DNA of 64,000 nucleotides, taken from assembly GCA_013373085.1 (NCBI GenBank), contig JABXIM010000045.1, forward strand, positions 473-64,472. The letters are read 5' to 3'. The notes beneath the pieces were generated by a model. It searched no databases and was not told the DNA's origin. It was given only the letters and a program-made list of their open reading frames with translations. The stretch is from Oceanospirillaceae bacterium. GTDB taxonomy: Bacteria > Pseudomonadota > Gammaproteobacteria > Pseudomonadales > Balneatricaceae. This document shows positions 6,539-59,710 of the stretch, piece after piece (position 1 is the stretch's first letter; each line of letters starts with the position of its first letter). A program made the position numbers and the translations under genes.

Positions 6539-6710
6539 GATGTCCTTTCGTCGCGCTCTACGTCTGCACGGAAGATCAGCGGCGCATGATACCTCAACGC
6601 GGCCCCAGGTGCCGCGTGTGAAAATTTCATGCTCTCAGAGCTTGAACTGTCCTTAAAAGCGCATTTTTTTTCAACAGGTTAAGACTACTTCTCCGAAATC
6701 ACTTCCGGAG

Positions 6711-6917: not shown

Positions 6918-7171
6918 GGTTGCCTCCATCGGTTTGCGTCGCTGTATCTCATCACCCTTAAGTGTAATGGGCCCCGGCGCATTCGCAGCACAAGGTGTGA
7001 CCTGAAGGGCGTTATTGCATGAACGAATACGGGCGGCAGGCTCGCCCGGCCAACCCGTGATTGGGCCGCTGGTCGAGGGGCAGGGACGCAGGACAGGGGC
7101 TATCGGTCGGCTATACTCTGAGCGGAATCTCCCATGAGCAACAGGGTGCAGTGGCACCCGGGACCGACGTT

Positions 7172-7636: not shown

Positions 7637-7729
7637 CTTGCCAGGCCGGGGTAACGATACCGTTCGTCGATCACCCGGGCACATCTGGCTGACCAGCACG
7701 GTCAAGGTGCGGCAGAGGGAGACGTGCGC

Positions 7730-9490: not shown

Positions 9491-9554
9491 TCGCTGTGTT
9501 CCCGGTTAAGACATTGGGGCAGCTTAGCGCAATAGACGAAGCGAGGAGACGCCA

Positions 9555-10532: not shown

Positions 10533-10570
10533 AACTAAGCTGAGAGGGTAAAAAGGCACTGGAGGCAGCA

Positions 10571-11929: not shown

Positions 11930-12058
11930 ATCATGAACCGGCCGGGAGGCAAGGCTGGCGGGGAATCGGCCGGCTTTGGCTCGAATACAATCAATCGCGG
12001 CGGAGCTCAAGCGCCGAGACGTTTAGTGGTCCCCGGTCTCGATAGCGGAAAGTCCCGG

Positions 12059-12640
12059 ATGCGGAAGAATTGCGTGAAGATGCTCGCGGCCTGTCTGGCA
12101 GCGGTTGTTTTGCCGGCGCTGGCCGAGCGGGCGCTGTTCGCCGGCGGTTGCTTCTGGTGTATGGAGCAGGCGTTCGAAGAGGTCGAAGGCGTGGTCAGCG
12201 TGGTCTCGGGGTTTACCGGTGGAGCGCTTGAAAATCCAACCTACGACGGCAATCACGAGGGGCATCTCGAGGCAGTCGCGGTCGAATTCGATCCGCAGCG
12301 GGTCAGTTACGAGGCGCTGCTGCGGGTGTACTGGCGCAACATCGACCCGTTCGACGACCGTGGCCAGTTCTGCGACAAGGGGCCCAGTTACCGTAGTGCC
12401 ATTTTCGTCGCCACTGCGCAGCAGCGGCGCCTGGCCGAGGCGTCGCGGCAAGTGGTCGTCGAGCGCTTTCCTGACCTCGAGGTGGTGACTCCGGTGCGGG
12501 ACGCCGGTCCCTTCTATCCGGTCAAGGAATACCATCAGGATTACTATCGCAAGAATCCGCTGCGGTACCTCTTTTACAAGACCACCTGCGGTCGCCCGGC
12601 GCGACTCGAGGAAATCTGGGGCGAGAGCGCGGTGCACTGA
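12059..12640 (+). CDS. msrA: Peptide-methionine (S)-S-oxide reductase, probably exported
   Basis: FAGGCFWCME and EYHQDYY; hydrophobic signal-like N-terminus; start chosen at ATG 12059 (uncertain). Confidence 0.9.
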   Translation: MRKNCVKMLAACLAAVVLPALAERALFAGGCFWCMEQAFEEVEGVVSVVSGFTGGALENPTYDGNHEGHLEAVAVEFDPQRVSYEALLRVYWRNIDPFDDRGQFCDKGPSYRSAIFVATAQQRRLAEASRQVVVERFPDLEVVTPVRDAGPFYPVKEYHQDYYRKNPLRYLFYKTTCGRPARLEEIWGESAVH

Positions 12641-12706
12641 GGCGACTTTGCGCAGCGACCGGTTTAAGCTACCGGCACAAGATTCGGTTCAGAGGGAGTG
12701 CTGACG

Positions 12707-13312
12707 ATGAAACTGTATTTTTCCCCGGCTTCGCCATTCGCGCGCAAGGTCCTGGTGGTCGCCCACGAAGCCGGCATGGCCGACCGTATTGAAATCCTCG
12801 GCAGCAAGGCCAGTCCCGTCGCCACCGACATGACGATAGCCGCGTCGAACCCGCTGGGGCAGGTGCCGTCGGTGTTGCTGCCCGACGGACAGCCGCTGCA
12901 TGACAGCCGGGTGATCTGCGAATATCTGGACAGCCTTGCGGGCGCCGGGCTCTTCCCCGCCGGCGAGGCGCGCTGGCCGGTGCTGACGCTGCAGTCCCTT
13001 GCCGATGGCATTCTCGACGCGGCGCTACTGGCCCGCTACGAGACCGCGTTGAGGCCTGAGCCGCTGCGTTGGAAGGCCTGGGAGGACGGGCAGATGCGCA
13101 AGATTCAGCGCGGGCTCGATCAACTCGATGCCGAGGCAGGCGGCTTTGTCGACCGGGTCGATATCGCCACCATCGCCATTGGCTGTGCGCTCGGTTATCT
13201 CGATTTCCGTTTTCCGCACTTTGACTGGCGCGGCGGCCGCGACAGGCTCGACGCCTGGTATGCCGGATTTGCCCAGCGCCCGTCGATGCAGGCGACCCAG
13301 CCTAAAGGCTGA
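12707..13312 (+). CDS. Glutathione S-transferase family protein
   Basis: MKLYFSPASPFARKV, NPLGQVP and DSRVICEYLD. Confidence 0.9.
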   Translation: MKLYFSPASPFARKVLVVAHEAGMADRIEILGSKASPVATDMTIAASNPLGQVPSVLLPDGQPLHDSRVICEYLDSLAGAGLFPAGEARWPVLTLQSLADGILDAALLARYETALRPEPLRWKAWEDGQMRKIQRGLDQLDAEAGGFVDRVDIATIAIGCALGYLDFRFPHFDWRGGRDRLDAWYAGFAQRPSMQATQPKG

Positions 13313-13330
13313 GCCGGTGCGGCGCAGGGG

Positions 13331-14479
13331 TTAGTCGTCCGAGTAAAAGACGCCCTGGTTGACCAGCTGGGTCAGTAGTTCGATGGCGAAATCGGTATCG
13401 TCACCGAGGTCGAGGCCACCGCCACCGCAGATGCTGGCGAACAGCGGACCCTGCTGGGTGCTGCCCTCGTAGCATTGGCCGTCGGCGAACAGCTGCCAGC
13501 CTTCCCCCTGACGACGAAACGCCAGGCGTGCGCCTTCGTTGCGGCTGAGCGAGCCGCCACCGGCGAGAAAGTCGCGCAATTCGTCCGTCGTGACCTTTTC
13601 CTCCGGCGCCTGATCCAGTTCCGGGTATTTGGCTTCGGTCATATAGCGGCCGAACCATTCGCCGAGCAGGGCGTCATCGTCGATATAGCGGTGCAGTGCC
13701 GCACGCAGTCTGCCGATGGCATCATCGCCAATCTCGGCCGGGTTGGCCTGCACGTCCAGGTCCGGGTCGCGATAACGGTCTTCCCCGCGCAGTCGCTCGC
13801 CGACGAAATCGGTGAAATGGCGCATGATTTCGGCGTGGGAGGGCGCGCGAAAGCCGACTGAATAGGTCATGCAGCCATCGCCGACGGCGAAACCGTTATG
13901 GCCGACCTGGGGCGGTACGTAGAGCATGTCGCCGGGCTCCAGTACCCAGCTCTCCTCGGCCGTCCACTCCGGCAGAATCATCACCGGCGCGTCGTCGCGG
14001 CGCGGCGAGGACTCGTCGTATAGGCCGCCGACTTCCCAGCGCCGCTGGCCCGCGGCCTGGATCAGGAATACGTCGTAGTTGTCGTAATGGGGGCCGACAC
14101 CACCGCCGTCGACGGCGTAGCTGATCATCAGGTCGTCGCGCCGCCAGTTGGGGATGAAGTCGAACTGAGCCAGCAGCTCGGCCGCGTCCGGTACCCAGTG
14201 GTCAACCGCCTGCACCAGCAGGGTCCAGTGGGACGCCGGGAGCGAAGCGAAATCCTGTTCGTCGAACGGCCCCTGGCGCAGGCTCCAGTCATCGCTGTCC
14301 GGCGACTGCACCACCAGTCGCGCCTCAACCTCCTCCTCGCAGGCCAGTCCCGCCAGTTCGTCCGGCTCGATAACGGGCTGGAAGTCCGCAAAGGCCTGGC
14401 GGATGAGCAGGGGTTTTTTCTGCCAGTATTCCCGCAGAAAGCGTTCGGGCGTCAGTTCGCCCAGATTCAGTATGTTCAT
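13331..14479 (-). CDS. roxA: JmjC/cupin 2OG-Fe(II) oxygenase, ribosomal protein uL16 hydroxylase (YcfD/RoxA)
   Basis: FLREYWQKKPLLIR, WRRDDLMISYA, GPHYDNYDVF (HxD), LEPGDMLYVPP..GH and YSVGFRAP. Confidence 0.88.
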   Translation of the reverse strand: MNILNLGELTPERFLREYWQKKPLLIRQAFADFQPVIEPDELAGLACEEEVEARLVVQSPDSDDWSLRQGPFDEQDFASLPASHWTLLVQAVDHWVPDAAELLAQFDFIPNWRRDDLMISYAVDGGGVGPHYDNYDVFLIQAAGQRRWEVGGLYDESSPRRDDAPVMILPEWTAEESWVLEPGDMLYVPPQVGHNGFAVGDGCMTYSVGFRAPSHAEIMRHFTDFVGERLRGEDRYRDPDLDVQANPAEIGDDAIGRLRAALHRYIDDDALLGEWFGRYMTEAKYPELDQAPEEKVTTDELRDFLAGGGSLSRNEGARLAFRRQGEGWQLFADGQCYEGSTQQGPLFASICGGGGLDLGDDTDFAIELLTQLVNQGVFYSDD

Positions 14480-42943: not shown

Positions 42944-43233
42944 CGCTGTTATCGCCGGCGTTGCTGCTTGCGGCCATCGCTGCCGGCATTTCCTGCTCGT
43001 CACCGGGCTTGGGACTGCCGCAGGAACAATTTCATTCTCTGGAATCCTAAGTCCGGCTCGGGAACTGATGAATAAGTCCCAATGAGTCTCTGGCTTTCAG
43101 CGCGAGCCGGAATCGAGGCGCAGCTTTGAAGGCATGCTGGTGGCCTGTCGAGAAGCGGTTCCCTAGAACGCGGCGGCGGCTAAGGCTTTCGCAAGATTAC
43201 CTCATGCCTCAAATTGATATTTAGGGCTAGAAT

Positions 43234-43247
43234 AATCCAATTGGATT
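43234..43247. promoter_or_regulatory. Perfect palindrome, candidate repressor operator
   Basis: AATCCAATTGGATT directly after a TAGAAT -10-like hexamer (43228-43233), 27 bp before the ATG at 43274. Confidence 0.45.
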
Positions 43248-43273
43248 TTCAGGGCCGCACGCAAGGAGCTTCG

Positions 43274-46200
43274 ATGGGTCTGTTGGCATCTCAACGGTTT
43301 TTACCACTCTTCCTGACTCAGTACTTCGGAGCCTTTAACGACAATTTCTTCAAGAACTCGCTTTTGGTTTTCATCATGTTTGCCATGGTGGGACAAACGA
43401 GTATCGATTCAGCCATGCTGATGCCATTGGGCGCCGGGCTGTTCATTTTCCCCTTCTTCCTGTTCTCGGCCCTTGCAGGCCAGCTCTCGGATCGCTTTGA
43501 GAAAGCCACCCTGATCAAGGGGCTGAAAGGCCTTGAGGTTCTCATCATGGGGCTTGGGGCAACGGCACTGCACCTGGAAGCGGTTAACCTGATGATGGGC
43601 ACTTTGTTCCTGATGGGGACGCAGAGCGCATTTTTCGGACCGCTCAAGTATGCCATCCTGCCCGAACTGCTGCAGGAGGATGAGCTTGTAACAGGCAACG
43701 CCTGGATCGAAGCGGGTACTTTCCTGTCGATTCTGCTGGGGACCATTGCGGGTGGACTGCTCATTATGCTGCCTGATGGCGCTTTGTGGGTCAGTGCCGG
43801 CCTCCTGGCTGTCGCTGTCTGCGGATTTCTGGCAAGTCTGTTTATTGTCAATACGCACGTGCGTGCGCCCGATCTTGCAATCAACCCCAATATCCTGGGC
43901 GAAACCATTCAGATCATCCGTGACCTGCGTGCCAACCGGACCGTGTTCCTGGCGGTAATCGGCATTTCCTGGTTCTGGTTTGTCGGGGCCACCTTCCTGT
44001 CTCAGTTCCCGACGTTTTCCAAAGACCTCATCGGTGGTGACGAAAAACTCGTTACGCTGTTCATGACGGTTTTCTCCATCGGCATCGGTATCGGTTCCTG
44101 GCTGTGCGCAAAGCTGCTCAAGGGCAAAATAAGCGCGAATCTGGTGCCGCTATCGGCAATCTTCATGGCCGTTTTCTGTGTTGACCTCTATTACGCCTCG
44201 ACCGCCTTTGGCATGGAGCCGGTTGATGCGATGTCGGTCTCTGCCACAGCGTTCGCTTCCAGCGTCCAGGGGGCACGCATTCTTATCGACCTGACGTTGC
44301 TGGCCATTGCCGGTGGTCTATATATCGTACCGCTGTATTCGATTATCCAGGTGCGCAGTGCCGAGCATGAGCGGGCCCGCATGGTCGCAGCCAACAACAT
44401 CCTAAATGCGTTTTTCATGGTCGTATCATCGGTGGTCTTGATGGCTGTCTTTGCCTTTGGGGGCGCGATACATGATGCCTTCCTGCTGATGGCCGGGGCC
44501 TCGGTCGTTGTGGCGATCTACATTTGTGGCCTGCTGCCGCGTCAGTTGTTCCGCAGCCTTGCCGTGATCGTCTTCAAAACCCTCTTCAAAGTGGAAGTGC
44601 ACGGCGCCAGTAACTTCCAGAAGGCAGGGGACAGGGCTGTCATCGTCGCGAATCACGTATCCTGGCTGGATGGTCCGCTGATGGCGGCGTTCGGTCCGGA
44701 GGACGCCCTGTTTCCAATCAACACCTTTGTCTTCAAGAAGTGGTGGGGCGGGCTTTCGCGGAAATTTGCCAATATGATCCCGGTCGATCCGTCGAGCCCC
44801 TACGCCACCAAAACCATGATCAAGGCGGTGGAAGAGGGTAATCACCTGATGATCTTCCCGGAAGGGCGTCTCACCGTGACGGGGTCGCTGATGAAGATCT
44901 ACGATGGTCCGGCGCTGATCGCGGACAAAGCCAGGGTGAAGATCGTGCCGGTTCGCCTGGACGGTGTGCAGTTCTCCAAGCTTTCACGCTTGAAGGGCAA
45001 AATGCCCGTGAGCTGGTTCCCGAAAATCACCATCACCGTGCTTGAGCCCGTGACTCTGGAGGTGCCTGAGGCGATTCGGGGCCGTGAGCGGCGCAAAGTG
45101 GCCGGGCAGAAACTCTATGATCTGATGTCCGAGATGATGTTTGCCACCAGCAGCAATCTCGACAACACCCTGTTCAATGCGCTGCTGGACGCCAAAGCGG
45201 TCTATGGACCGAAACATCAGGTACTGGAAGATCCCCAGACGATGGCCCAGCCAGTGCCATATCAGGACATCCTCAAGGGCAGTTTTGTACTGGGACGATA
45301 CCTGAGCCGAAGCACCGACGCCGCCGAGCGAGTCGGTGTACTCCTGCCCAACAGTGTCGGGACCGTCGTGACCTTCTTTGCGCTCCAGGCTTTCGGTCGG
45401 GTACCGGCCATGCTGAACTTCACCATGGGCCCTGGCACCCTGGTCGCCGCCTGCGAAACGGCACAGGTGCGAACGGTACTGACATCCCGCCGGTTTGTGG
45501 AAATGGGTAATCTGACCGCGGTTATCGAAGCGCTCTCGGAGCAGGTTTCGGTCTGTTACCTCGAGGACCTCAAGGATCAACTGAGCCTGTCCGACAAGGT
45601 AAAGGGGCTGCTGAGCGGTCTGCGTCCGCGCACCCATGCGTCGGCGAACCCGGATGCACCCGCGGTGGTGCTCTTCACCTCCGGATCGGAGGGCGCGCCG
45701 AAAGGTGTCGTGCTGAGTCACCGCAACCTGCTGGCCAATCTCTGCCAGATCGGTGCCCGGGTCAGCTTCAATACCCAGGACATTATCTTCAATGCAATGC
45801 CGATGTTTCATAGCTTCGGACTGACAGGCGGCACACTCCTGCCCGTCCTGTCGGGGTTGAAAACCTTTCTGTACCCCAGCCCGCTGCACTACAAGATAGT
45901 CCCGGAGCTCATTTACGAGACCAACGCGACCGTTGTGTTCGGCACCGATACCTTTTTGAGCAACTATGCCAAAAAAGCCAATCCGTACGACTTCTACAAC
46001 GTGCGCTACATCATCGCCGGCGCCGAGAAGGTCAAAGCCGAAACCCGTGCCGTCTACATGGAGCGGTTCATGAAGGGGATCCTGGAAGGCTACGGCGCCA
46101 CCGAGACCGCGCCGGTAATCGCGGTGAATACTCCGATGCACAACAAGGCCGGTACCGTGGGTCGCCTGTTGCCCGGAATTGAAGCCAGGCTAGAACCGGT

Positions 46201-46678
46201 ACCCGGTGTCGAGCGCGGTGGCCGCCTGTGGGTCAAGGGCCCCAACATCATGCTGGGCTACTTCAGGCACGATCAGCCCGGCGTGCTGCAACCGCCGGAA
46301 GAGGGCTGGTATGACACCGGCGACATCGTGGATATCGATGATCTCGGCTATGTCGAGATCCTCGGCCGGGCCAAACGTTTCGCCAAGGTCGCCGGCGAGA
46401 TGGTATCTCTGACCCAGGTGGAGGCCATGATCAGCAAGCTATGGCCGGATGACGCCAGCGCTGTGGTGTCCATCCCGGATCCGAAGAAAGGCGAACAGCT
46501 GGTCCTGTTTACGACCCGCGCCGATGCCGAGCGTCAAGCCATCAGCGCTCATATCAAAGGGCAGGGCGGCGCCGAGCTGATGGTGCCCCGGGACATCCGG
46601 GTGGTCGACAAGCTTCCGGTGCTGGGCACCGGCAAAACCGACTATGTATCCCTTGGGAAAATGGCCCTTGAAGATTAA
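43274..46678 (+). CDS. aas: Fused MFS lysophospholipid transporter (LplT-like) / acyltransferase / acyl-ACP synthetase (Aas-type)
   Basis: MFS N-terminus (GAFNDNFFK, AGQLSDRF), PlsC NHVSWLD and FPEGR, AMP-binding FTSGSEGAPKGV, GYGATE, WYDTGD and RFAKVAGEM; AAGGAG RBS. Confidence 0.92.
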   Translation: MGLLASQRFLPLFLTQYFGAFNDNFFKNSLLVFIMFAMVGQTSIDSAMLMPLGAGLFIFPFFLFSALAGQLSDRFEKATLIKGLKGLEVLIMGLGATALHLEAVNLMMGTLFLMGTQSAFFGPLKYAILPELLQEDELVTGNAWIEAGTFLSILLGTIAGGLLIMLPDGALWVSAGLLAVAVCGFLASLFIVNTHVRAPDLAINPNILGETIQIIRDLRANRTVFLAVIGISWFWFVGATFLSQFPTFSKDLIGGDEKLVTLFMTVFSIGIGIGSWLCAKLLKGKISANLVPLSAIFMAVFCVDLYYASTAFGMEPVDAMSVSATAFASSVQGARILIDLTLLAIAGGLYIVPLYSIIQVRSAEHERARMVAANNILNAFFMVVSSVVLMAVFAFGGAIHDAFLLMAGASVVVAIYICGLLPRQLFRSLAVIVFKTLFKVEVHGASNFQKAGDRAVIVANHVSWLDGPLMAAFGPEDALFPINTFVFKKWWGGLSRKFANMIPVDPSSPYATKTMIKAVEEGNHLMIFPEGRLTVTGSLMKIYDGPALIADKARVKIVPVRLDGVQFSKLSRLKGKMPVSWFPKITITVLEPVTLEVPEAIRGRERRKVAGQKLYDLMSEMMFATSSNLDNTLFNALLDAKAVYGPKHQVLEDPQTMAQPVPYQDILKGSFVLGRYLSRSTDAAERVGVLLPNSVGTVVTFFALQAFGRVPAMLNFTMGPGTLVAACETAQVRTVLTSRRFVEMGNLTAVIEALSEQVSVCYLEDLKDQLSLSDKVKGLLSGLRPRTHASANPDAPAVVLFTSGSEGAPKGVVLSHRNLLANLCQIGARVSFNTQDIIFNAMPMFHSFGLTGGTLLPVLSGLKTFLYPSPLHYKIVPELIYETNATVVFGTDTFLSNYAKKANPYDFYNVRYIIAGAEKVKAETRAVYMERFMKGILEGYGATETAPVIAVNTPMHNKAGTVGRLLPGIEARLEPVPGVERGGRLWVKGPNIMLGYFRHDQPGVLQPPEEGWYDTGDIVDIDDLGYVEILGRAKRFAKVAGEMVSLTQVEAMISKLWPDDASAVVSIPDPKKGEQLVLFTTRADAERQAISAHIKGQGGAELMVPRDIRVVDKLPVLGTGKTDYVSLGKMALED

Positions 46679-46765: not shown

Positions 46766-48892
46766 GTGACCGATCAGCACCGGGCAGCGGGCCGCAGACG
46801 CAGAATGCGCTCCGCGCTGTTGCTTGTGGCAGTTTCCCTCGCGGCGGTGCTGCTGGCGCTTTTCGCCGCTCATCGCGCGCGCGACTGGACGTTGCAGCAG
46901 TTGCACCGACAGGGCGCCGAAACTCTGCTCGAGCGGGTCAGCGAGATGCGCGGCTGGCTCGACGGTTACGACTATCTGCCGTTTCTGCTGACCCAGAACC
47001 GCGATGTGCGTGCACTTTTGCTGTACCCGAACCAGGAAATGGGCGTCCGGGTCAGTCGCTATCTCGAGCAGACCAGCCTGGTGGCCGGCTCGACCGCGCT
47101 CTTTATCCTCGATGTCGGCGGTCGCGCCGTCGCATTCAGCAACTGGCGCGACCAGCAGGATTTCTATTTGCGCAGTCACGCCCGCCGCAACTATTTTCTC
47201 GATGCCCGCAAGGGCGAGCAGGGGCGGCGTTTCGCGCTGGCCGGCGATACCGGCAGTCCGGCGTTTTATCTGTCGGCACCGATCTACGACGCCCGCCGCT
47301 TCGTCGGCGCAGCGGTGGTTCGACTTAATCTCGAACTGCTTCAGCGCCGGCTCGGCAATGCCGGTCTGCCCTGGCTGCTGAGCGGTCCGGAAGGTACCCT
47401 GATCGCTGCGTCGGAGCCGACCTGGGTGGGGCGGGCGCTAGCGTCGCTGTCGCATTCGGAGCAAGTTCAGCGGCTGCTGAATGGAACCGAGATCAGGCGC
47501 TGGCCCGAGGTACTGGAAGGTCGGCGACTGGCTCAGAGTGTCGAGCTGGACGACCTGGGCTGGACGCTGACCGTACTGCAGGACAGCGAACCGGCGGAGC
47601 GAAACAGCCGCACCGCAGGTCTGTTTACGCTCGGTGGCAGCATCGCCTTCTGTTTGCTGTTGCTGTACCTGCGCGAGCGCAGGCTCAAGCACCGCTCGCA
47701 ACGGGAAACCCAACTGGCACTACGGCGTTCCGAACAGCGTCAGCGCGATATCATCGACACCGCTCAGGTGGGGCTGATCACCGTAGACAGTGCCGGCCGC
47801 ATGTTGTTTCTCAACGGCATGGCACTGAAGCAGTTCGGATTGTCGCCGAAGCTGGCGCTGCAGCAGCCGCTGAGCAGACTGTTCTGCATGAGCCAGGCTG
47901 CCGGGCCGCTCGAGGCGGCGCTGTCTCGGCTTGGCAGTAGCGGTTTTGCGCCTCTGACCGGCCAGGAGGCCGTTGGCCGGCGTGCCGACGGCTCGGAATT
48001 TCCGCTGATGTTTTCGATCCGCGAGATGCCGGGAAATGGCCAGCGTCGCTTTTTGGTGACCGTGATCGATATCTCGCGGCGCAAGCGGCTCGAGCAGGCG
48101 TTGCGTGACGCTCGCGATTCGCTCGAGGACAAGGTCGAGGCGCGCACCCGGGAGCTGCATTCTATGCAGCAGGAACTGATTCAGGCTGAAAAACTGGCGG
48201 CGCTGGGACGAATGTCCAGCGCCGTAGTGCACGAACTCAATCAGCCGTTGACCGCAATGCGCACCTATGTCGCCATCTGCCGCCAGCTGAACGAGCGACC
48301 GGACCTCCTCGCCGGTAACCTCGAACAGATCGATGCGCTGGTGGATCGTATGGCACTGATCACACGACAGCTCAAGACTTTCGCCTACCGCAAACCGGAG
48401 CGGCTGGAGCCGGTATCCCTGGGCGACTGCATCGATCGCACGCTGGCCCTGTTCGGTACGCGATTCGACGAAACCGGCGTCGAGCTGAGTGTCGAGCGCT
48501 GTAGCGGCGAAGACCGGGTCGCGGGGGATAGCGCCCGTCTCGAGCAGGTGCTGATCAATCTGATTGGCAACGCCCTCGATGCCATGACGGACACTCAGGG
48601 GACGCGCCGGTTGGCACTGCGCTTGACCAGCCGCGGCGAGCAGCTGCAGCTGGAGGTCTGCGACAGCGGCGGCGGGATTGCCGAGGATGTGCTGGACAAG
48701 CTGTTCGATCCATTTTTCACCACCAAAAGCATCGGCAGCGGGCTCGGCCTGGGGCTGGCGATCGTCCGCAGTATCCTGCGCGATCTAGGCGGCGATATCG
48801 ATGCGCGCAACCGGGCTGGCGGCGGCGCCTGCTTCCGGCTATGGTTGCCCGCCTGGGTCGAGGTCACGACAACCAACGACAGAGAGACATGA
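46766..48892 (+). CDS. DctB-like sensor histidine kinase (periplasmic Cache + cytoplasmic PAS + HisKA/HATPase)
   Basis: TM-Cache-TM layout, PAS-like IIDTAQVGLITVD...GRRADGSEFP...DISRRK, H-box VHELNQPL, N-box NLIGNALDA, G-boxes DSGGG and GLGLGL. Confidence 0.9.
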   Translation: MTDQHRAAGRRRRMRSALLLVAVSLAAVLLALFAAHRARDWTLQQLHRQGAETLLERVSEMRGWLDGYDYLPFLLTQNRDVRALLLYPNQEMGVRVSRYLEQTSLVAGSTALFILDVGGRAVAFSNWRDQQDFYLRSHARRNYFLDARKGEQGRRFALAGDTGSPAFYLSAPIYDARRFVGAAVVRLNLELLQRRLGNAGLPWLLSGPEGTLIAASEPTWVGRALASLSHSEQVQRLLNGTEIRRWPEVLEGRRLAQSVELDDLGWTLTVLQDSEPAERNSRTAGLFTLGGSIAFCLLLLYLRERRLKHRSQRETQLALRRSEQRQRDIIDTAQVGLITVDSAGRMLFLNGMALKQFGLSPKLALQQPLSRLFCMSQAAGPLEAALSRLGSSGFAPLTGQEAVGRRADGSEFPLMFSIREMPGNGQRRFLVTVIDISRRKRLEQALRDARDSLEDKVEARTRELHSMQQELIQAEKLAALGRMSSAVVHELNQPLTAMRTYVAICRQLNERPDLLAGNLEQIDALVDRMALITRQLKTFAYRKPERLEPVSLGDCIDRTLALFGTRFDETGVELSVERCSGEDRVAGDSARLEQVLINLIGNALDAMTDTQGTRRLALRLTSRGEQLQLEVCDSGGGIAEDVLDKLFDPFFTTKSIGSGLGLGLAIVRSILRDLGGDIDARNRAGGGACFRLWLPAWVEVTTTNDRET

Positions 48893-50277
48893 TGAAAACC
48901 AAAGGCCGGGTGCTGCTCGTCGATGACGAGGCCATGGTGCGCAACGCCACCGAACAATGGCTGCGGATGGCGGGGTTCGAGGTCGACGCCTGCAATAGCG
49001 CCGGGCCTGCGCTGCAACAGCTGCGGCATGGCTTCAACGGCGTGCTGGTGACAGATGTCCGCATGCCCGGCATGGATGGCCTGGAGCTGATGCAGAAGGC
49101 GCTGGAGACGGTGCCCGGGCTTCCGGTGATACTGATTACCGCCCACGGCGATATCGACATGGCCACCGGCGCGATGCGCGACGGCGCCTATGATTTTATC
49201 GAAAAGCCCTTCGTGCCGGAGCGCCTGGTCGAGACCATCCAGCGTGCCTGCGACAAGCGCCGGCTGATGCTGGAGAACGAGCGATTGTCCCGGGATATCG
49301 CCTCGCGCACCGGTATCGACGGTCGCCTGATTGGCCTGTCGACGTCGATGCAGCGTCTCAAGGCAGAACTGCTGGCGTTGGCCGGCATCGATACCGGCGT
49401 CATCATTTACGGTGAAACCGGCACTGGCAAGGAACTGGTGGCACAGTGCCTTCATGAATTCAGCCCCCGCAGCAAGGGTCACTTTGTGCCGATCAACTGT
49501 GGCGCTATCCCGGAGTCGCTGATCGAGAGCGAACTGTTCGGTCACGAAGCGGGTGCGTTCACCGGCGCGGTGAAAAGGCGCATCGGCAAGCTCGAGTATG
49601 CGTCCGGCGGCACCCTGTTTCTCGATGAAATTGAAAGTATGCCGGCGCATCTGCAGATTCGCCTGTTACGGGCGTTACAGGAAGGCGTGGTCGAACGGCT
49701 CGGCGGCAACAAGCCGATCCCGGTCGACCTGCGGGTAGTGGCCGCCGCCAAGGTCGACCTGCTCAATGACGAGGGCTTTCGCGATGATCTCTACTATCGG
49801 CTTAACATGTCTCAGTTGCATATTCCGGCGTTGCGAGACCGTATCGAGGACGTACCGCTGTTGTTCGACCATTACGTCCAACGCTGTGCGGCGCAGCATC
49901 ACCGCGAACCGCGCCGCTTATCGGAACTCGATCTGCGCACGCTTCAGCGCCATGGATGGCCAGGTAATGTCCGCGAACTGAAGAATATCGCCATGCGCTT
50001 CGCCCTTGACGAGCGGTCGCAGCTGGCCGATCTGCTTTTCCCGAGAAATTCCGCGTTGCAGTCGAAACCGGTCGAGCCGGGTCTGCAACCGCTGGCGGTG
50101 CAGGTGGCAGCATTCGAGTCCGAGGTTATCCGCGCGTCGTTACGCCGGCATCGTGGCAATATCAAGGCGGTTCTCGACGAACTCGACCTACCGCGCCGGA
50201 CGCTGAATCAGAAGATGACGCGTTATGGCATCAACCGAGCCGACTTCACCGGCGATGATACCCGTCGCATGGAATAA
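48889..50277 (+). CDS. DctD-like sigma54-dependent response regulator
   Basis: Receiver LLVDDE...DVRMPG.DG...IEKP; AAA GETGTGKE, ESELFGHEAGAFTGA, LFLDEIE and WPGNVREL; C-terminal HTH; ATGA overlap with the kinase. Confidence 0.93.
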   Translation: MMKTKGRVLLVDDEAMVRNATEQWLRMAGFEVDACNSAGPALQQLRHGFNGVLVTDVRMPGMDGLELMQKALETVPGLPVILITAHGDIDMATGAMRDGAYDFIEKPFVPERLVETIQRACDKRRLMLENERLSRDIASRTGIDGRLIGLSTSMQRLKAELLALAGIDTGVIIYGETGTGKELVAQCLHEFSPRSKGHFVPINCGAIPESLIESELFGHEAGAFTGAVKRRIGKLEYASGGTLFLDEIESMPAHLQIRLLRALQEGVVERLGGNKPIPVDLRVVAAAKVDLLNDEGFRDDLYYRLNMSQLHIPALRDRIEDVPLLFDHYVQRCAAQHHREPRRLSELDLRTLQRHGWPGNVRELKNIAMRFALDERSQLADLLFPRNSALQSKPVEPGLQPLAVQVAAFESEVIRASLRRHRGNIKAVLDELDLPRRTLNQKMTRYGINRADFTGDDTRRME

Positions 50278-50363
50278 GCACGGGCCCTGGTCCTCTGCAT
50301 ACCCAAGACTCCTGCCCATCGGCCGAATCCTGCCGATTTTTCCATGTCCCGCGTCCCCTGACG

Positions 50364-50438
50364 GGCTTTTTCTGCCCCCATGGCTGCAATCGGCCATTTT
50401 TTGCTTACCGGGGCTGCCACTGATAGGCAGAAAATGGC
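50364..50438. promoter_or_regulatory. Candidate enhancer (UAS) sites for the DctD-like activator
   Basis: Three related 12-mers: GGCTTTTTCTGC (50364-75), GCCATTTTTTGC (50393-404) and inverted GCAGAAAATGGC (50427-38), 75-150 bp upstream of the sigma54 site. Confidence 0.45.
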
Positions 50439-50512
50439 TTATATCTGCATTTCTTAGCGCAATCGCGAAAAATACACTATACAAAACAAGGACTAACTGG
50501 CGCTTTCATAGT

Positions 50513-50528
50513 TGGCATCGCGCTTGCT
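50513..50528 (+). promoter_or_regulatory. sigma54 (-24/-12) promoter of the TAXI-TRAP-lhgO genes
   Basis: TGGCAT-CGCGC-TTGCT against the consensus TGGCAC-N5-TTGCW, with correct GG/GC spacing; adjacent to a bEBP gene. Confidence 0.8.
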
Positions 50529-50570
50529 ATCAGTCATTGCGACTGACCACAACAACAGCAATAAGCAGGT

Positions 50571-51599
50571 ATGAGCATGAAAAAACGTACGCTTCTCAAA
50601 GGAATGGCACTGGCACTGAGCGCCGGTACGCTCTGTGCAACGGCAACCCTGGGGCAGGCGGCGGACAACCGCAACTACATCCTGGCGACCGCCTCCACCG
50701 GCGGAACCTACTACCCGGTAGGTGTGGCGCTGGCGACGCTGGCCAAGGTCAAACTGGAACCGACCCAGGGAATGGCGATGTCGGCCATCAACTCGGCCGG
50801 GTCCGGCGAGAACATCAAGCTGCTGCGTGAGAACGAGGCTCAGTTCGCGATTCTGCAGGGGCTGTACGGCGCCTGGGCCTGGAATGGCGAAGGCGCCCTG
50901 GCGAATTCCGGGCCGCAGCAGCAGCTGCGCTCGGTGACCATGTTGTGGCAGAACGTCGAGCAGTTCGTGGTGAAGAGCGAATACGCCAAGACCGGTACCA
51001 TCATGGATATGGCCAACCTCTACGACAAGAAATTCTCCATCGGTCCCAAGAACTCAGGCACCGAAGGCTCCGGTCTCACCATCCTGGGCAACCTGGGTCT
51101 CGACGCCGACAAGTTCGACATGGCGTACATGGGTTATGGCCCCTCCGCCGATGCGCTGCAGAACGGCACCGTCGATGGCATGAACATCCCGTCCGGCGTG
51201 CCGACCTCGGCGATTACCCGCGCCTTCGCCGCACTGGGCAGCGATATCCGTATCCTCGATTTCACCGACGAGGAGATCGAGAAGGCCAACGGGCGCTACA
51301 AGCTGTGGACCCGCTTCACCATCCCGGCCAACACCTATCCGGGACAGACCCAGGAAGTCCAGACCATGGCGCAGCCGAACTTCCTCGCGGTGCGGGATGA
51401 CGTGTCCGAAGAGGATGTTTACCAGCTGACCAAGACCATCTATGAAAACCTGGCGTTCCTCAACGGTATACACAAGGCCACCGAAGCGATGGCGCTGGAC
51501 AAGGCGATAGCCGGTCTGCCGGTACCGCTGCACCCCGGTGCGGCCCGCTACTACCAGGAAGTGGGGGTCGAGATCCCCGAGCACCTGATCGCCCAATAA
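50571..51599 (+). CDS. TAXI-family TRAP transporter solute-binding protein
   Basis: Signal peptide; ILATASTGGTYYPVG, SAGSGENI, SIGPKNSGT and VPLHPGAARYY. Confidence 0.93.
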   Translation: MSMKKRTLLKGMALALSAGTLCATATLGQAADNRNYILATASTGGTYYPVGVALATLAKVKLEPTQGMAMSAINSAGSGENIKLLRENEAQFAILQGLYGAWAWNGEGALANSGPQQQLRSVTMLWQNVEQFVVKSEYAKTGTIMDMANLYDKKFSIGPKNSGTEGSGLTILGNLGLDADKFDMAYMGYGPSADALQNGTVDGMNIPSGVPTSAITRAFAALGSDIRILDFTDEEIEKANGRYKLWTRFTIPANTYPGQTQEVQTMAQPNFLAVRDDVSEEDVYQLTKTIYENLAFLNGIHKATEAMALDKAIAGLPVPLHPGAARYYQEVGVEIPEHLIAQ

Positions 51600-51613
51600 G
51601 AAAGCGTCAAATT

Positions 51614-51774
51614 GTAGGATGGGCGAAGCCGCAATGGCACGCCGGCAACGGTTTACAGCATATCGTTTTGCGGCGGAATCCATCGTCGTTTTCGCCCCTC
51701 TGATGGGTTGCGCCGTCGCTGGAATGCAGTGCAGATCCTCTGAAATGTGCCGGCGACGGCTTCATCCATCCTAC
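51614..51774. repeat. REPIN, family A
   Basis: GTAGGATGGGCGAAGCCG ... GGAATCCATC ... GATGGGTTGCG ... CGGCTTCATCCATCCTAC: two inverted REP modules. Confidence 0.8.
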
Positions 51775-51848
51775 GGCGCAGCAATCGCATCCAGCCGGTA
51801 CCTGTGGGTACCGGCACCTTCTGACGTTCCAAGACTGCGGACAGACCT

Positions 51849-53987
51849 ATGAGTACCGAACACCTGGACACCGATCAGGATACGGCGGACAAGCTGAAGA
51901 GCCTCGAGCTTGCCCAGCGTACCGAAGATTCCGCACCCGGCCGCTTCATTTACTGGGCCGGTGTGCTGTTTTCGCTGGCCCATATCTATTTCAACACCCT
52001 CGGCACCTGGTCCGAGCTGTATGTATCGGCGATCCACTTCGGTGGTTTCGCGCTGATCTGCGCGCTTATGGTTCCGGGCATCAAGCGCGCCGGGGCCGCG
52101 ACCAGCAAGGCGGTACTGGCATTCGATATCCTGGTGGGGCTGGCGGCCATTGCCTGCGCGCTCTACCTCATTGGCTTCGAGGATGCTCTCTACGACCGCG
52201 GTGTCAATTTTGTCGCCTCGGACTGGTTCTTCTCGGCGCTGGCGATCATCGTGGCGCTGGAGATGGCGCGTCGCACGACCGGCTGGTTCATTCCCTGCCT
52301 GATCATCGTCGCCCTGACCTATGTCTTCTGGTGGGGCCCCTACATCGAGGGCATGTTCGGATTCGCCGGACTCAGCCTGGAAACGCTGCTGTACCGGTCC
52401 TACTTTGGTTCCGACGGCATGTTCGGTTCCATTGCACGGATTTCCTGGACCTTCGTCTTCATGTTCATTCTGTTCGGCGCCTTCCTGGTTCGGTCCGGCG
52501 CCGGCGACTTTATCATCGAACTGTCGCGCTGTGCTGCCGGTCGTTTCGTCGGCGGCCCCGGCTTCGTTGCGGTACTGGGTTCGGGGCTGATGGGTTCGGT
52601 GTCCGGCTCGTCGGTGGCGAATACCGTCTCCACCGGCGTCATTACCATTCCGCTGATGCGCCGCGCGGGTTTTCCGGCCCGGTTTTCGGCCGGCGTCGAG
52701 GCCGCGGCGTCCACCGGTGGCCAACTGATGCCGCCGGTCATGGGGGCAGGGGCCTTTATCATGGCCTCCTATACCCAGATTCCTTACGTCGAGATCATTG
52801 CCTACTCGGCATTGCCGGCGCTGATGTACTTCCTGTCGGTCGGCTTTTACGTCCGGGTCGAGGCGATGCGCAGCCATGCCCATGCGGTCGAGGTCGAGAC
52901 CCGTCCGCTGAAAGACGTGCTCAAGGAAGGCTGGCACTTCCTGCTGCCGTTGGCGGTGCTGGTGGCGTTGCTGATCTACGGCTTCACCCCGACCTATGCC
53001 GCCGGCATCTCGATCATCGCGGTGGTGGTGTCGTCCTGGCTGTCACGGAATCCCATGGGACCGAAGGCGGTGTTCGATGCCCTGGCTCAGGGCGCGCGCA
53101 ACATGGCGACCACGGCGATGTTGCTGGTCGCGGTGGGGCTGGTGGTCAACGTCGTGGCGATGACCGGCATCGGCAATACCTTCTCGCTGATGGTCAGCGA
53201 CTGGGCCGGTGGCAGCCTGCTGGTTACCATCCTGCTGGTCGGGCTGGCGTCGCTGGTGCTGGGCATGGGCCTGCCGGTGACCGCGGCCTATATCGTGCTG
53301 GCGACGCTGTCGGCGCCGGCGATCTACAATCTGATCGCTGAAACCCGGCTTATCGAGCTGATGATGAGCGGCGGGCTGCCGGAAGCGGCGCGAATGATCT
53401 TCATGCTGGTCGACCCGGAGAAGGTTACGGCGCTGGCATCGCCAATGTCCGAGGCCGATGCCCGGGCGCTGCTGGCACAGGTTCCGCAGGACTTCACCGG
53501 CCAGCTGATGTCCCAGGCACTGGATCCGACGGTGCTGTCGATGGCGTTGCTGTCGGCGCACATGATCATTTTCTGGCTGTCGCAGGACTCCAACGTGACG
53601 CCGCCGGTGTGCCTGACCGCGTTCGCGGCGGCGGCGATCGCCAAGACACCGCCGATGGCCACCGGCTTCACGGCCTGGAAGATCGCCAAGGGCCTTTACG
53701 TGGTGCCGCTGTTGTTCGGTTACACCAACCTGATCGGCGGCAGCGCCGAAGAGGTGACTCGGGTCTTCGTGTTCGGCATCTTCGGTCTCTATGCCTTCGT
53801 CGGCTTCATGGAAGGCTACCTCGAAGGCCGCCTGAACCTGTTGCTGAGACTGGTATCGGGTGCCTCCGCACTGGCGATGCTCTGGCCGCACCACAACCTG
53901 CTGATCGATCTGGCCGGGCTGGTGGTCTTCATCCTGCTCTTTGTTTACAGCCGCCGTGCCGGCAAGGTCGCGGCTGCATCGGCCTGA
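51849..53987 (+). CDS. TRAP transporter 4TM/12TM fused permease
   Basis: LEMARR..G, GSSVAN.VSTG.ITIP.M, EAAASTGGQLMPPVMGAGAFIMA, GMGLPVTAAY and SNVTPPV. Confidence 0.93.
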   Translation: MSTEHLDTDQDTADKLKSLELAQRTEDSAPGRFIYWAGVLFSLAHIYFNTLGTWSELYVSAIHFGGFALICALMVPGIKRAGAATSKAVLAFDILVGLAAIACALYLIGFEDALYDRGVNFVASDWFFSALAIIVALEMARRTTGWFIPCLIIVALTYVFWWGPYIEGMFGFAGLSLETLLYRSYFGSDGMFGSIARISWTFVFMFILFGAFLVRSGAGDFIIELSRCAAGRFVGGPGFVAVLGSGLMGSVSGSSVANTVSTGVITIPLMRRAGFPARFSAGVEAAASTGGQLMPPVMGAGAFIMASYTQIPYVEIIAYSALPALMYFLSVGFYVRVEAMRSHAHAVEVETRPLKDVLKEGWHFLLPLAVLVALLIYGFTPTYAAGISIIAVVVSSWLSRNPMGPKAVFDALAQGARNMATTAMLLVAVGLVVNVVAMTGIGNTFSLMVSDWAGGSLLVTILLVGLASLVLGMGLPVTAAYIVLATLSAPAIYNLIAETRLIELMMSGGLPEAARMIFMLVDPEKVTALASPMSEADARALLAQVPQDFTGQLMSQALDPTVLSMALLSAHMIIFWLSQDSNVTPPVCLTAFAAAAIAKTPPMATGFTAWKIAKGLYVVPLLFGYTNLIGGSAEEVTRVFVFGIFGLYAFVGFMEGYLEGRLNLLLRLVSGASALAMLWPHHNLLIDLAGLVVFILLFVYSRRAGKVAAASA

Positions 53988-54046
53988 CGGCGAAAGGGGG
54001 CGGTGACCTAGCCCCCCTTGTTTCAGCCCATTCGAACGGAACCACC

Positions 54047-55249
54047 ATGAACAACCGCTACGACTTTATCGTGATTGGCGGCGGGATCCTCGGGATGTCG
54101 ACCGCCTGGCAACTGCAAAAAGCCTGGCCGGGGCGCCGCGTGCTGGTGCTGGAAAAGGAGTCGGGCCCGGCCCGGCACCAGACCGGCCACAATTCGGGCG
54201 TCATTCATGCCGGTGTCTACTACAAGCCGGGCAGCCTCAAGGCGCGTTTCTGCAAGGAGGGCAACGTCGCCACCACGGCGTTCTGCGACGAGCATGACAT
54301 TCGTTACGACCGCTGCGGCAAGTTGCTGGTGGCCACCAGCGACATCGAGTATCAGCGCATGATGAACCTGGTCTCGCGCTGCGAACAGAATCAGCTCGAG
54401 ATCGAGGTGCTGTCGCAGCAGCAACTCGCGGCACGGGAGCCGAATATCGTCGGCGTCGGCGCCATCTTCGTGCCGTCGACCGGCATTGTCAGCTTTACCG
54501 AGATCACCGCCAGGATGGCCGAGCTGGTGGCTGCGGCCGGCGGCGAGATCCGTTATGGCACCGAGATGGTCGCTGTTGACGAGACCGCGCAGGGCATTGA
54601 GGTACGTACCGACCGTGGTGTGCTGCACGGTGATTACCTGGTGTCCTGCGCCGGACTGATGTCGGACCGGGTGGTGCGTATGCTGGGACAGGAGCCTGGG
54701 TTCCGGATTATCCCGTTTCGCGGCGAGTATTTCCTGCTGCCGCCGCGACACAACCGCATCGTCAATCACCTGATCTACCCGATCCCGGATCCGGAGCTGC
54801 CGTTTCTCGGCGTCCATCTGACCCGGATGATCGACGGTACCGTAACCGTCGGTCCCAACGCGGTGCTGGCGTTCAAGCGCGAAGGCTATGGCAAGTTCGA
54901 TTTCAGCCTCGCGGACAGCGTCGAGATGCTGCGTTATCCGGGATTGCGGCGAGTGGTGATGAAAAATCTGCGCGCCAGCCTCAACGAGCTGAAAAACTCC
55001 CTCAGCAAGCGCGGTTACCTGAAGCTGGTGCAGAAATACTGCCCGCAACTCACCGTCGCCGATCTGCAGCCTTACCCGGCGGGCATCCGCGCCCAGGCGG
55101 TGGCGCCGGACGGCAGCCTGGTGGACGACTTTCTGTTCGTCACCACCGGGCGGGCGCTGGTGGTCTGCAACGCCCCGTCTCCGGCCGCCACCTCGGCGAT
55201 TCCGATCGGCGCGCATATCGTCGAGCGGGTCAAACAACTCGTGACATAG
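54047..55249 (+). CDS. lhgO: L-2-hydroxyglutarate oxidase/dehydrogenase
   Basis: YDFIVIGGGILG, HQTGHNSGVIHAGVYY.PGSLKA, PFRGEYF, PFLGVHLT, GIRAQAV and CNAPSPAATSA; start at ATG 54047. Confidence 0.92.
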   Translation: MNNRYDFIVIGGGILGMSTAWQLQKAWPGRRVLVLEKESGPARHQTGHNSGVIHAGVYYKPGSLKARFCKEGNVATTAFCDEHDIRYDRCGKLLVATSDIEYQRMMNLVSRCEQNQLEIEVLSQQQLAAREPNIVGVGAIFVPSTGIVSFTEITARMAELVAAAGGEIRYGTEMVAVDETAQGIEVRTDRGVLHGDYLVSCAGLMSDRVVRMLGQEPGFRIIPFRGEYFLLPPRHNRIVNHLIYPIPDPELPFLGVHLTRMIDGTVTVGPNAVLAFKREGYGKFDFSLADSVEMLRYPGLRRVVMKNLRASLNELKNSLSKRGYLKLVQKYCPQLTVADLQPYPAGIRAQAVAPDGSLVDDFLFVTTGRALVVCNAPSPAATSAIPIGAHIVERVKQLVT

Positions 55250-55409
55250 GTTGGGTGGAGCGGCGAAGCCACGCAACCCCACACGCCATCCCGCAGGTGC
55301 CGGCCGCCGCCAATCGATCTGTAATGCGATCGATTTGGCGGGTTTTGCAGTGCCCGGACGTTGTCGGAGACGTCGACACTGATGCAGACGCATTGCGTCA
55401 CCCGCCTGA
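55246..55409. repeat. Degenerate REPIN overlapping the lhgO stop codon
   Basis: ATAGGTTGGGTGGAGCGGCGAAGCC..CAACCCCA at the left end; GCGTCACCCGCCTGA at the right; internal inverted repeats. Confidence 0.55.
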
Positions 55410-57701: not shown

Positions 57702-57775
57702 AATCTGCCGGTCAAAGCCGACGAAACATCGGGCGCCTGCTGTTGCCTAACGCAGCAACCGTTGGGAGGCTTGTT

Positions 57776-59710
57776 ATGCAACAGAATCTGGCGCAAAAGC
57801 TGATTTCCTCGCATCGGGTCGATGGCTCGATGCGTCCCGGCGACACGGTCGCGCTGCGTTTCGACCAGACACTCTGCCAGGATGCGACCGGCACGCTGGT
57901 GATGCTGACACTGGAGGCGATGGCGCTCGATCGGGTCAAGACCTCCGTCTCGGTACAGTACGTCGATCACAACCTGATCCAGGAAGATAACCGCAATCCG
58001 GACGATCACCGCTTTCTAGAGAGTGCGGCGCGACGTTTCGGCATTTGGTTCAGCCGGCCCGGCAACGGTATCAGCCATCCGCTGCACATGCTCAATTTCG
58101 GCGTGCCGGGCGAGACGCTGATCGGCTCCGACAGTCACACCCCGGCCTGCGGTTCGCTGGGGATGCTGGCGATCGGCGCCGGCGGTGCCGATGTCGCCAC
58201 GGCGATGGCCGGCGAACCGGTCTGGCTGCAAATGCCGGAAATATGGGGTATCGAGCTCGCAGGCGAGCTGCCGGACTGGGTCAGCGCCAAGGACGTGATT
58301 CTGGAACTGCTGCGCCGGCACGGGGTCGAGGGAGGCGTCAACCGCATCATCGAATACCATGGTCCGGGCGTCGCCGGTCTCAGCGCCATGGATCGCCATG
58401 TCATCGCCAATATGGGGGCGGAACTCGGCGCCACCACCAGTGTTTTCCCGTCCGACCGTGAAGTGAAGCGCTTTCTCGACAGTGAAGGGCGCGGCGCGCA
58501 CTGGCGCGAGCTCGGCGCCGATGCCGGCTGCGACTACGACCACCATGAACGTATCGACCTCGGCGGTCTCGAGCCGCTGATCGCCAAGCCTTCGAGCCCG
58601 GGCAATGTCGTGCCGGTGCGGGAGGTCGAGGGCGAGCCCATCTACCAGGCCTACATCGGGTCGTCCGCCAACCCGGGCTTTCGCGATTTCGCCGTGGCGG
58701 CGCGCATGGTGGCGGGAAAGCAGGTCGTGGACGGCGTGTCCTTCGATATCAATCCGACCTCCCGCCAGCTGCTGCAGCGGCTGATACGCTCCGGCGATCT
58801 CGACCGGCTGGTCGCCAGCGGCGCCCGGCTGCACCAGGCCGGCTGCAATGGTTGTATCGGCATGGGACAGGCGCCGGCGACCGAACAGAACAGTCTCAGG
58901 ACCACGCCCCGTAACTTTCCCGGTCGCTCCGGCACCCCCGAGGACCGGGTCTGGCTGTGCAGTCCTGAGACGGCCGCGGCCTCGGCATTGCGGGGCTGCA
59001 TCATGGATCCGCGCAACCTTGGCCTGGACTATCCCGCCATCGAACCGCCCGAGGGGGCAGGGCTCGATACCACGCACTTCATCGCACCTGACCAGGCAGA
59101 TGCGGAAACGGCGCTGGTCAAGGGGCCGAATATCGCGACACTGCCCGCCTTCGAAGCGCTGCCGGACCGGCTCGAGGTGCCGGTGCTGCTCAGGGTCGGC
59201 GACGACGTCTCGACCGACGAGATCATGCCGGCCGGTGCGCGCGTGCTGCCGTACCGCAGCAACGTGCCGAAAATCGCCGAATTCGTCTTCGAACATTTGG
59301 CGCCGGGCTACGTCGAACAGGCGCAGGAGGGCAAAGAGCAGGGCGGGCATGCGATCGTCGCCGGTCGCAACTACGGCCAGGGCTCGAGCCGCGAGCACGC
59401 CGCTATTGCACCTCGCTTTCTGGGATTGCGCCTGGTAGTGGCGAAAAGCTTCGCCCGCATCCACTGGCAGAACCTGATCAACTACGGGGTGCTGCCACTG
59501 ACCTTTGCCGATCCGCAGGATTACGGCCGGCTGGCGCCGGGCGCGATGTTACGACTGGAGGGATTGCGCAGCCTTGCGCCTGACACGCCTGTCCAGGCGC
59601 GGCTCCAGGATGGTACGACGGTCACGTTCGAACACCAGCTGTCACAACGTCAGTGCGAGCTGATCCTGGCTGGTGGCCTGGTCAACTGGCTAAAGCAGAA
59701 AGCGTCGTAG
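57776..59710 (+). CDS. Aconitase-family hydratase (PRK07229-like, single chain)
   Basis: QDATGT, YVDHN, GNGISH, GSDSHTP, GCNGCIGMG, RNFPGRSG, STDEIMPAG, NYGQGSSREHAA and KSFARIH; start at ATG 57776 after GGAGG. Confidence 0.88.
   Translation: MQQNLAQKLISSHRVDGSMRPGDTVALRFDQTLCQDATGTLVMLTLEAMALDRVKTSVSVQYVDHNLIQEDNRNPDDHRFLESAARRFGIWFSRPGNGISHPLHMLNFGVPGETLIGSDSHTPACGSLGMLAIGAGGADVATAMAGEPVWLQMPEIWGIELAGELPDWVSAKDVILELLRRHGVEGGVNRIIEYHGPGVAGLSAMDRHVIANMGAELGATTSVFPSDREVKRFLDSEGRGAHWRELGADAGCDYDHHERIDLGGLEPLIAKPSSPGNVVPVREVEGEPIYQAYIGSSANPGFRDFAVAARMVAGKQVVDGVSFDINPTSRQLLQRLIRSGDLDRLVASGARLHQAGCNGCIGMGQAPATEQNSLRTTPRNFPGRSGTPEDRVWLCSPETAAASALRGCIMDPRNLGLDYPAIEPPEGAGLDTTHFIAPDQADAETALVKGPNIATLPAFEALPDRLEVPVLLRVGDDVSTDEIMPAGARVLPYRSNVPKIAEFVFEHLAPGYVEQAQEGKEQGGHAIVAGRNYGQGSSREHAAIAPRFLGLRLVVAKSFARIHWQNLINYGVLPLTFADPQDYGRLAPGAMLRLEGLRSLAPDTPVQARLQDGTTVTFEHQLSQRQCELILAGGLVNWLKQKAS

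Follow-up and report, generated by a model that had tools for sequence, protein, structure and literature searches.

The oxidation of L-2-hydroxyglutarate (L-2-HG) to 2-oxoglutarate by the enzyme LhgO has been placed in two genetic settings, and a study of lhgO neighbourhoods gives only these two, a csiD type and an lhgR type (PMC8206213). They are represented by the csiR-csiD-lhgO-gabDTP loci of Escherichia coli and Pseudomonas putida KT2440 and by the lhgR-lhgO locus of P. putida W619 (PMC6265302, PMC8206213), and P. putida is able to grow on L-2-HG via LhgO (PMC8206213). Here, we describe a different arrangement in an Oceanospirillaceae bacterium (assembly GCA_013373085.1, 100% complete; contig JABXIM010000045.1), in which lhgO stands behind the genes of a TAXI-TRAP transporter and of a two-component system of the DctB/DctD type. 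The five genes occupy positions 46766-55249 of the stretch of 64 kb that was analysed, hereafter called the window. An earlier note on this DNA had read them as a system for the sensing, uptake and oxidation of exogenous L-2-HG, and this interpretation is partly supported by our results. In our reading, the genes form an inducible module that takes up and oxidises an external C5 dicarboxylate substituted at C2, with L-2-HG as the likeliest cargo and 2-oxoglutarate probably accepted as well; we give this reading a probability of roughly 0.55.

Several described systems resemble parts of the locus. On the transporter side, the closest is the TAXI-TRAP system VCA0144/VCA0146 of Vibrio cholerae (Potapova et al. 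2025, PMC12718363), whose binding protein is an orthologue of the TAXI protein of the window; its structure has been solved, while its cargo is still not known (PMC12718363). Most TAXI-TRAP transporters are still orphans. The statement of the earlier note that few TAXI ligands are known needs to be updated, since a specificity for 2-oxoglutarate and 2-hydroxyglutarate has been reported for the system PMI1055 of Proteus mirabilis (Roden et al. 2023, Biol Chem 404:715, as cited in PMC12344293). The passages that cite it present the P. mirabilis system as a transporter of alpha-ketoglutarate (PMC11574862, PMC12344293). By description, it shares with our locus a TAXI binding protein, a fused permease and the class of ligand proposed here; it differs in being described as proton-coupled, and the same citing passages report neither a linkage to lhgO nor a sigma-54 two-component control (PMC12344293, PMC11574862). 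The glutamate-binding proteins GluP of V. cholerae (VcGluP, VC0430) and TtGluBP of Thermus (PMC11574862) belong to the same fold family, although their identity to the TAXI protein of the window is only about 30%.

On the regulatory side, the two-component system MifS/MifR of Pseudomonas aeruginosa controls, together with RpoN, the uptake of alpha-ketoglutarate, a C5 dicarboxylate, and is specific for this compound (PMC4482717). It appears to be the closest regulatory analogue in the literature, likened here by description as a DctB/DctD-family two-component system that acts with sigma-54 on C5 dicarboxylate uptake. In contrast to our locus, its target is not a TAXI-TRAP transporter and LhgO is not involved. 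The target of MifS/MifR, PA5530, is presumably a carrier of the MFS type.

The module of the window consists of the following elements, given with their coordinates in the window and their strand:

46766-48892, + strand: sensor histidine kinase of the DctB type, with a transmembrane segment, a periplasmic dCache_1 domain, a second transmembrane segment and PAS, HisKA and HATPase_c domains (Pfam)
48889-50277, + strand: response regulator of the DctD/NtrC type, a sigma-54 enhancer-binding protein with REC, Sigma54_activat, AAA_lid_14 and HTH_8 domains (Pfam)
50393-50438: inverted repeat GCCATTTTTTGCTTA / TAGGCAGAAAATGGC, which precedes the -24/-12 element by about 75-135 bp and is a candidate upstream activator site
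50513-50528, + strand: sigma-54 -24/-12 promoter TGGCATCGCGCTTGCT, 43 nt before the ATG of the TAXI gene
50571-51599, + strand: TRAP solute-binding protein of the TAXI family, orthologue of VCA0144 (PDB 9ibp), carrying a signal peptide of the Sec type
51849-53987, + strand: TRAP permease of the fused DctQ-DctM type, 712 aa (TIGR02123, 644 bits; cut-off 321)
54047-55249, + strand: lhgO, 400 aa, L-2-hydroxyglutarate oxidase/dehydrogenase dependent on flavin adenine dinucleotide, the sole copy in the genome

The co-orientation of kinase, regulator, TAXI, permease and lhgO genes, the GAFTGA motif, which can be read in the AAA+ domain of the translated regulator, and the -24/-12 site at 50513-50528 are all present as the earlier note had it. 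For the sensor region of the kinase (residues 46-232), matches were obtained to the solved DctB sensors 3by9, 2zbb and 3e4o. The open reading frame of the regulator opens at 48841, but translation probably starts from the ATG at 48889, where start codon and kinase stop codon overlap as ATGA. The TAXI protein scores 333 bits with TIGR02122 (cut-off 84) and matches PF16868 with E = 3.5e-110, and its N-terminal signal peptide is evident from the translation. The gene of the fused permease lies 249 nt 3' of the TAXI gene on the same strand. The frame listed for lhgO runs from 53609, a position still inside the permease gene; the true start codon is the ATG at position 54047, 59 nt past the permease stop. 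With the equivalog NF008726, LhgO scores 598 bits over model positions 1-389 (cut-off 299), its best relative in the PDB is 8w75 (E = 8.5e-89), and the equivalog assignment indicates that it probably turns L-2-HG into 2-oxoglutarate. No signal peptide was found in the translation of LhgO and, therefore, its substrate must be intracellular.

The locus shares with the csiD and lhgR types the enzyme LhgO and its reaction, but it differs from them in that the genome holds no CsiD and the locus no GntR regulator, that lhgO follows a transporter, and that control by a sigma-54 two-component system is predicted. Within the window, no homologue of a CsiR/LhgR-like GntR regulator, of gabD or of gabT was found, as had been stated earlier together with the lack of csiD/glaH; for CsiD/GlaH, this extends to the whole genome, where neither a match to PF08943 nor a tblastn hit with the CsiD of a relative was obtained. 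The best genomic match to the GntR/FCD regulator (CsiR/LhgR) is 33% identical and lies on a different contig. Since the genome has exactly one LhgO and no CsiD, there is no internal route from glutarate to L-2-HG.

We followed the linkage between lhgO and the transporter in the genomes of 190 species of the family, taking as TAXI orthologues the matches with E < 1e-100 and as linked those lhgO genes that lie 2.2-4.0 kb after the TAXI gene on the same strand. LhgO is encoded in 147 of the 190 genomes, the TAXI orthologue in 128 and CsiD in 67. Among the 128 genomes with the TAXI protein, lhgO stands directly after the permease gene in 56, which belong to 10 genera (51 by coordinate matching and 5 from direct inspection of 13 further loci). 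The refutation that the earlier note had set for itself, a linkage not conserved in relatives, was thus not what we found. LhgO occurs in 123/128 of the TAXI-bearing genomes versus 24/62 of those without TAXI, counts that are not corrected for phylogeny and that include one clade of small genomes lacking both genes. In a survey of 80 related loci, the order kinase-regulator-TAXI-permease was the rule in Oceanospirillales relatives, and lhgO was found directly 3' of the permease gene in 18 of them. In most linked loci, the gap between permease gene and lhgO measures 17-92 nt, and no enzyme gene other than lhgO is a recurrent neighbour of the transporter. As judged by reading the sequences, the loci without lhgO carry at this place mutually unrelated, housekeeping-like genes (Sel1/SPOR-like, aminotransferase, RapA-like helicase and others).

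When lhgO lies elsewhere (15 loci examined), it is mostly found with a GntR/FCD regulator and CsiD, often together with GabD and GabT, and across the family the coordinates of CsiD directly adjoin those of lhgO. The canonical GntR-CsiD-LhgO locus thus also exists in relatives of the organism, and the contrast that the earlier note had drawn with loci of the CsiD/GntR type is real inside one bacterial family. The two arrangements complement each other: lhgO stands behind the permease gene, as the sole copy, in 47 of the 68 TAXI genomes that lack csiD, but in only 9 of the 60 that have it. These nine hold a second lhgO, which is located beside csiD in the eight for which a position is given. From this distribution, lhgO appears to sit with the source of its substrate, either CsiD as an internal one or the TAXI importer.

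A phylogeny of LhgO divides the TAXI-linked enzymes into at least two groups with good support, and each of these neighbours enzymes linked to CsiD or GntR. A tree constrained to unite the TAXI-linked enzymes in a single clade is worse by 226 log-likelihood units (approximately unbiased test, p = 0.00024; the constrained group was defined after a first tree had been seen). In the tree of TAXI plus permease, adjacency of lhgO requires at least nine gains or losses. A further case is found in the 2.0-Mb genome of a distant gammaproteobacterium (G392), where the order is usp-lhgO-TAXI-permease, followed by a CitMHS/SLC13-like carrier with TrkA_C domains; kinase and regulator genes are absent nearby. 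This locus is an independent assembly of lhgO and the TAXI pair. In the locus (L102, C1:1717000-1735000), the genes from 6347 to 13653 are all on one strand, and the usp gene codes for a tandem Usp protein. Since the linked enzymes are not monophyletic and the order in G392 is different, the linkage is no single inherited accident. The trees indicate that it arose more than once and suggest that it is frequent and recurrent, yet easily lost.

The region between the regulator and TAXI genes comprises 293 nt and contains the only match to TGGCAY-N5-TTGCW on both strands of the window, versus 0.20 expected; rpoN is found elsewhere in the genome. The orthologue VCA0144 has an RpoN-bound and RpoN-dependent promoter, TGGCATCTTCTTTGC (PMC3439928), which is very close to the site of the window, and the sigma-54 control proposed in the earlier note is in this way backed by experiment for the V. 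cholerae system (PMC3439928). With the strict sigma-54 pattern, a site at -60 to -110 was found in about half of the related loci. Words of the TTGCTTA/TAAGCAA type (TTGCTTAT/ATAAGCAA) are the most shared 8-mers 5' of the TAXI gene, the top one being present in 44 of 61 loci. The words are arranged as a palindrome, TAAGCAA-N4-TTGCTTA, in about ten loci, roughly 100-130 bp before the -24/-12 element, and in some of these another copy follows at a distance of one to three helical turns. The repeat at 50393-50438 is a degenerate version of this palindrome. To judge from their position and conservation, the upstream repeats are probably the sites to which the regulator binds. In Neptuniibacter loci, there is no adjacent kinase or regulator gene, yet palindromes and sigma-54 site are both kept and, therefore, the regulators can act from elsewhere in the genome.

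A second DctB/DctD pair is encoded beside dctPQM (DctP-DctQ-DctM) on another contig (C59:1-7300), with a kinase 34% and a regulator 49% identical to those of the window, so the system described here is not the only one of the DctBD/C4-dicarboxylate type in the cell. A signal other than C4-dicarboxylates is plausible for the kinase of the window. The genome also codes for a GluP-like TAXI protein with its own permease (C227:8538-9407), which is 59% identical to VcGluP.

Taken as a module, the locus could work as follows. The periplasmic dCache domain of the kinase would detect the compound, and the kinase would phosphorylate the DctD-type regulator, which would bind to the upstream repeats and activate the sigma-54 promoter at 50513-50528. 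The TAXI protein would capture the ligand in the periplasm and pass it to the fused permease. In the cytoplasm, LhgO, probably transcribed together with the transporter genes, would oxidise the imported L-2-HG to 2-oxoglutarate, which would enter the tricarboxylic acid cycle.

The pocket of the binding protein can be compared with solved structures. The TAXI protein is 70% identical to VCA0144 (PDB 9ibp; phmmer E = 1.7e-146), and the positions aligned with the GluP pocket agree between both proteins at 13 of 14, the exception being position 208, with Ser here and Ala in VCA0144. In the alignment with VcGluP and TtGluBP, the N-lobe residues Y45, S75, Q93 and E125 of GluP are kept as Y47, S78, Q96 and E130, whereas the lobe-II pocket residues are unlike: D157 is replaced by T164 and H123 by N128, and the stretch Y200-G203 differs. 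Throughout the orthologues, with or without adjacent lhgO, the pocket-equivalent residues are nearly invariant, with rare substitutions only, which leads us to expect that all members of the orthogroup bind one and the same ligand. The conserved acidic residue E130, at the contact to the C2 substituent, may suit a hydroxyl or amino group better than a keto group, as far as an alignment at 30% identity allows.

Several observations weigh against our reading of the module. More than half of the TAXI genomes of the family carry the transporter without an adjacent lhgO and, since the pocket residues are alike in both groups, the ligand could be a more general metabolite. The assembly has its closest relatives in Marinobacterium and, by sequence comparison, the nearest species is M. 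nitratireducens, where the locus reads TAXI-permease-fadE, with neither lhgO nor the kinase/regulator pair (L081, G045, C1:573000-592000). There, TAXI and permease are 91% and 93% identical to those of the window, fadE follows the permease gene directly, and lhgO is found in a GntR-CsiD-LhgO locus on a different contig (L082). In the window itself, a hairpin is located between the permease gene and lhgO. Finally, the residues of VcGluP that hold the amino group of glutamate (Y45, Q93 and E125) are kept in the TAXI protein, and an amino-dicarboxylate other than L-glutamate is a possible ligand on this ground.

Another explanation, which we consider rather unlikely, is that the system is mainly an importer of 2-oxoglutarate, like MifSR-PA5530 and the P. 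mirabilis transporter, and that LhgO serves as a repair enzyme for L-2-HG formed as a side product by malate or lactate dehydrogenases when the 2-oxoglutarate pool rises. That L-2-HG arises from 2-oxoglutarate by such promiscuous reactions is documented (PMC8206213), the texts that cite the P. mirabilis TAXI system give alpha-ketoglutarate as its substrate (PMC11574862, PMC12344293), and MifS/MifR with RpoN responds specifically to this compound (PMC4482717). A transporter conserved with or without lhgO, with a pocket that barely varies, is in line with this explanation, and the near-universal occurrence of LhgO (147/190) in several contexts would fit a general clean-up role. However, in the 47 genomes without csiD in which the linked lhgO is the sole copy, basal L-2-HG would escape repair if the enzyme were induced only by a signal from outside. 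The repeated independent recruitment of lhgO is also more simply explained by direct catabolism, and E130, with the caution due to so distant an alignment, would fit a hydroxyl donor better than a keto group.

It is less probable still that the cargo is unrelated to 2-hydroxyglutarate, for instance another amino-, C4- or C5-dicarboxylate, and that lhgO came to lie beside the transporter by neutral rearrangement and has its own transcription. This would agree with the patchy adjacency, which needs at least nine gains or losses on the transporter tree and is absent in the closest species, with the conserved ligands of the amino group in GluP, with the orphan state of VCA0144 (PMC12718363), and with the hairpin and REP-like repeats that flank lhgO in the window. 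Against it stand the facts that lhgO is the sole recurrent same-strand neighbour, at gaps of 17-92 nt, that the linkage arose at least twice and exists in two gene orders, that it is complementary to the presence of csiD, and that a consensus scan found no sigma-70-like promoter before lhgO. Glutarate as a cargo that would explain the link to lhgO was rejected because CsiD is absent.

Two further elements lie in the gaps between the genes of the module:

51614-51774: REP-like element with inverted ends (GTAGGATGGGCGAAGCC ... GGCTTCATCCATCCTAC), within the 249 nt that separate the TAXI gene from the permease gene
53981-54029, + strand: hairpin rich in GC, located between permease gene and lhgO; the sequence after it is GTTTCAG and not a U-tract

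The hairpin has a predicted energy of -23 kcal/mol and, with z = -0.3, is no better than shuffled sequence, and the same holds for the predicted fold of the REP-like element. We therefore rejected the hairpins in both gaps as terminators; likewise, the consensus scan called no terminator in the gap between permease gene and lhgO. Of the end motif of the REP-like family, with a consensus of about GTAGGATGGGTGGAGCC, the genome contains 53 copies when up to 2 mismatches are allowed. The spacer between TAXI and permease genes is occupied by one inverted pair, and a related motif occurs 3' of lhgO at 55250-55285.

The locus adds a third context of lhgO to the csiD and lhgR types, one in which L-2-HG would be of external origin and not derived from glutarate. 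The components and the logic are already known, namely TAXI-TRAP transport, DctBD/sigma-54 control, LhgO, and a TAXI system taking 2-oxoglutarate and 2-hydroxyglutarate; new are their combination, its complementarity with CsiD and a cargo hypothesis for an orphan structure. In the literature that we searched for an association of TAXI or TRAP transporters with lhgO or 2-hydroxyglutarate, the arrangement is not described. For a transporter family made up largely of orphans, the repeated recruitment of lhgO, mostly in csiD-less genomes, and the predicted sigma-54 two-component control lead to a specific cargo hypothesis, L-2-HG and/or 2-oxoglutarate. If confirmed, the locus would represent a bacterial uptake system for L-2-HG with an extracellular sensor, of which the literature searched holds no description.

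Hypoxic animal tissue releases L-2-HG, as do other microbes. A bolder proposal, which we put forward only tentatively and with some doubt, is that TAXI proteins of the VCA0144 type are dedicated high-affinity receptors for L-2-HG and that their partner kinases of the DctB type are the first extracellular sensors of this compound in bacteria. If so, marine and host-associated Oceanospirillales, and by extension Vibrio, would use L-2-HG both as a nutrient and as a cue from their environment, and the orphan crystal structure 9ibp would gain its cargo.

Some observations concern the surroundings of the module and its relatives. In the locus of M. nitratireducens, a gene for an M16/PreP-like peptidase lies upstream of the TAXI gene, in place of kinase and regulator. 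In M. aestuariivivens (L115, G044, C1:5018865-5025500), tblastn finds the permease gene and the linked lhgO each split into two frames, possibly by frameshifts, as pseudogenes or through assembly errors, and the match to CsiD in this species is shortened (model positions 79-294). Downstream of fadE, the window carries an aconitase-family gene of the PRK07229 type (57743-59710, 902 bits). Both fadE and this aconitase-like gene were considered as parts of the module and rejected, as their conservation is restricted to the genus and they also follow the permease gene where lhgO is absent. Directly upstream of the kinase gene, positions 43214-46678 code for a triple fusion of 1154 aa that joins an MFS (LplT-like) part to an acyltransferase and an acyl-ACP synthetase. 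With NF005291 (acyl-[ACP]-phospholipid O-acyltransferase), the fusion reaches 1602 bits; it seems to be unrelated to the module.

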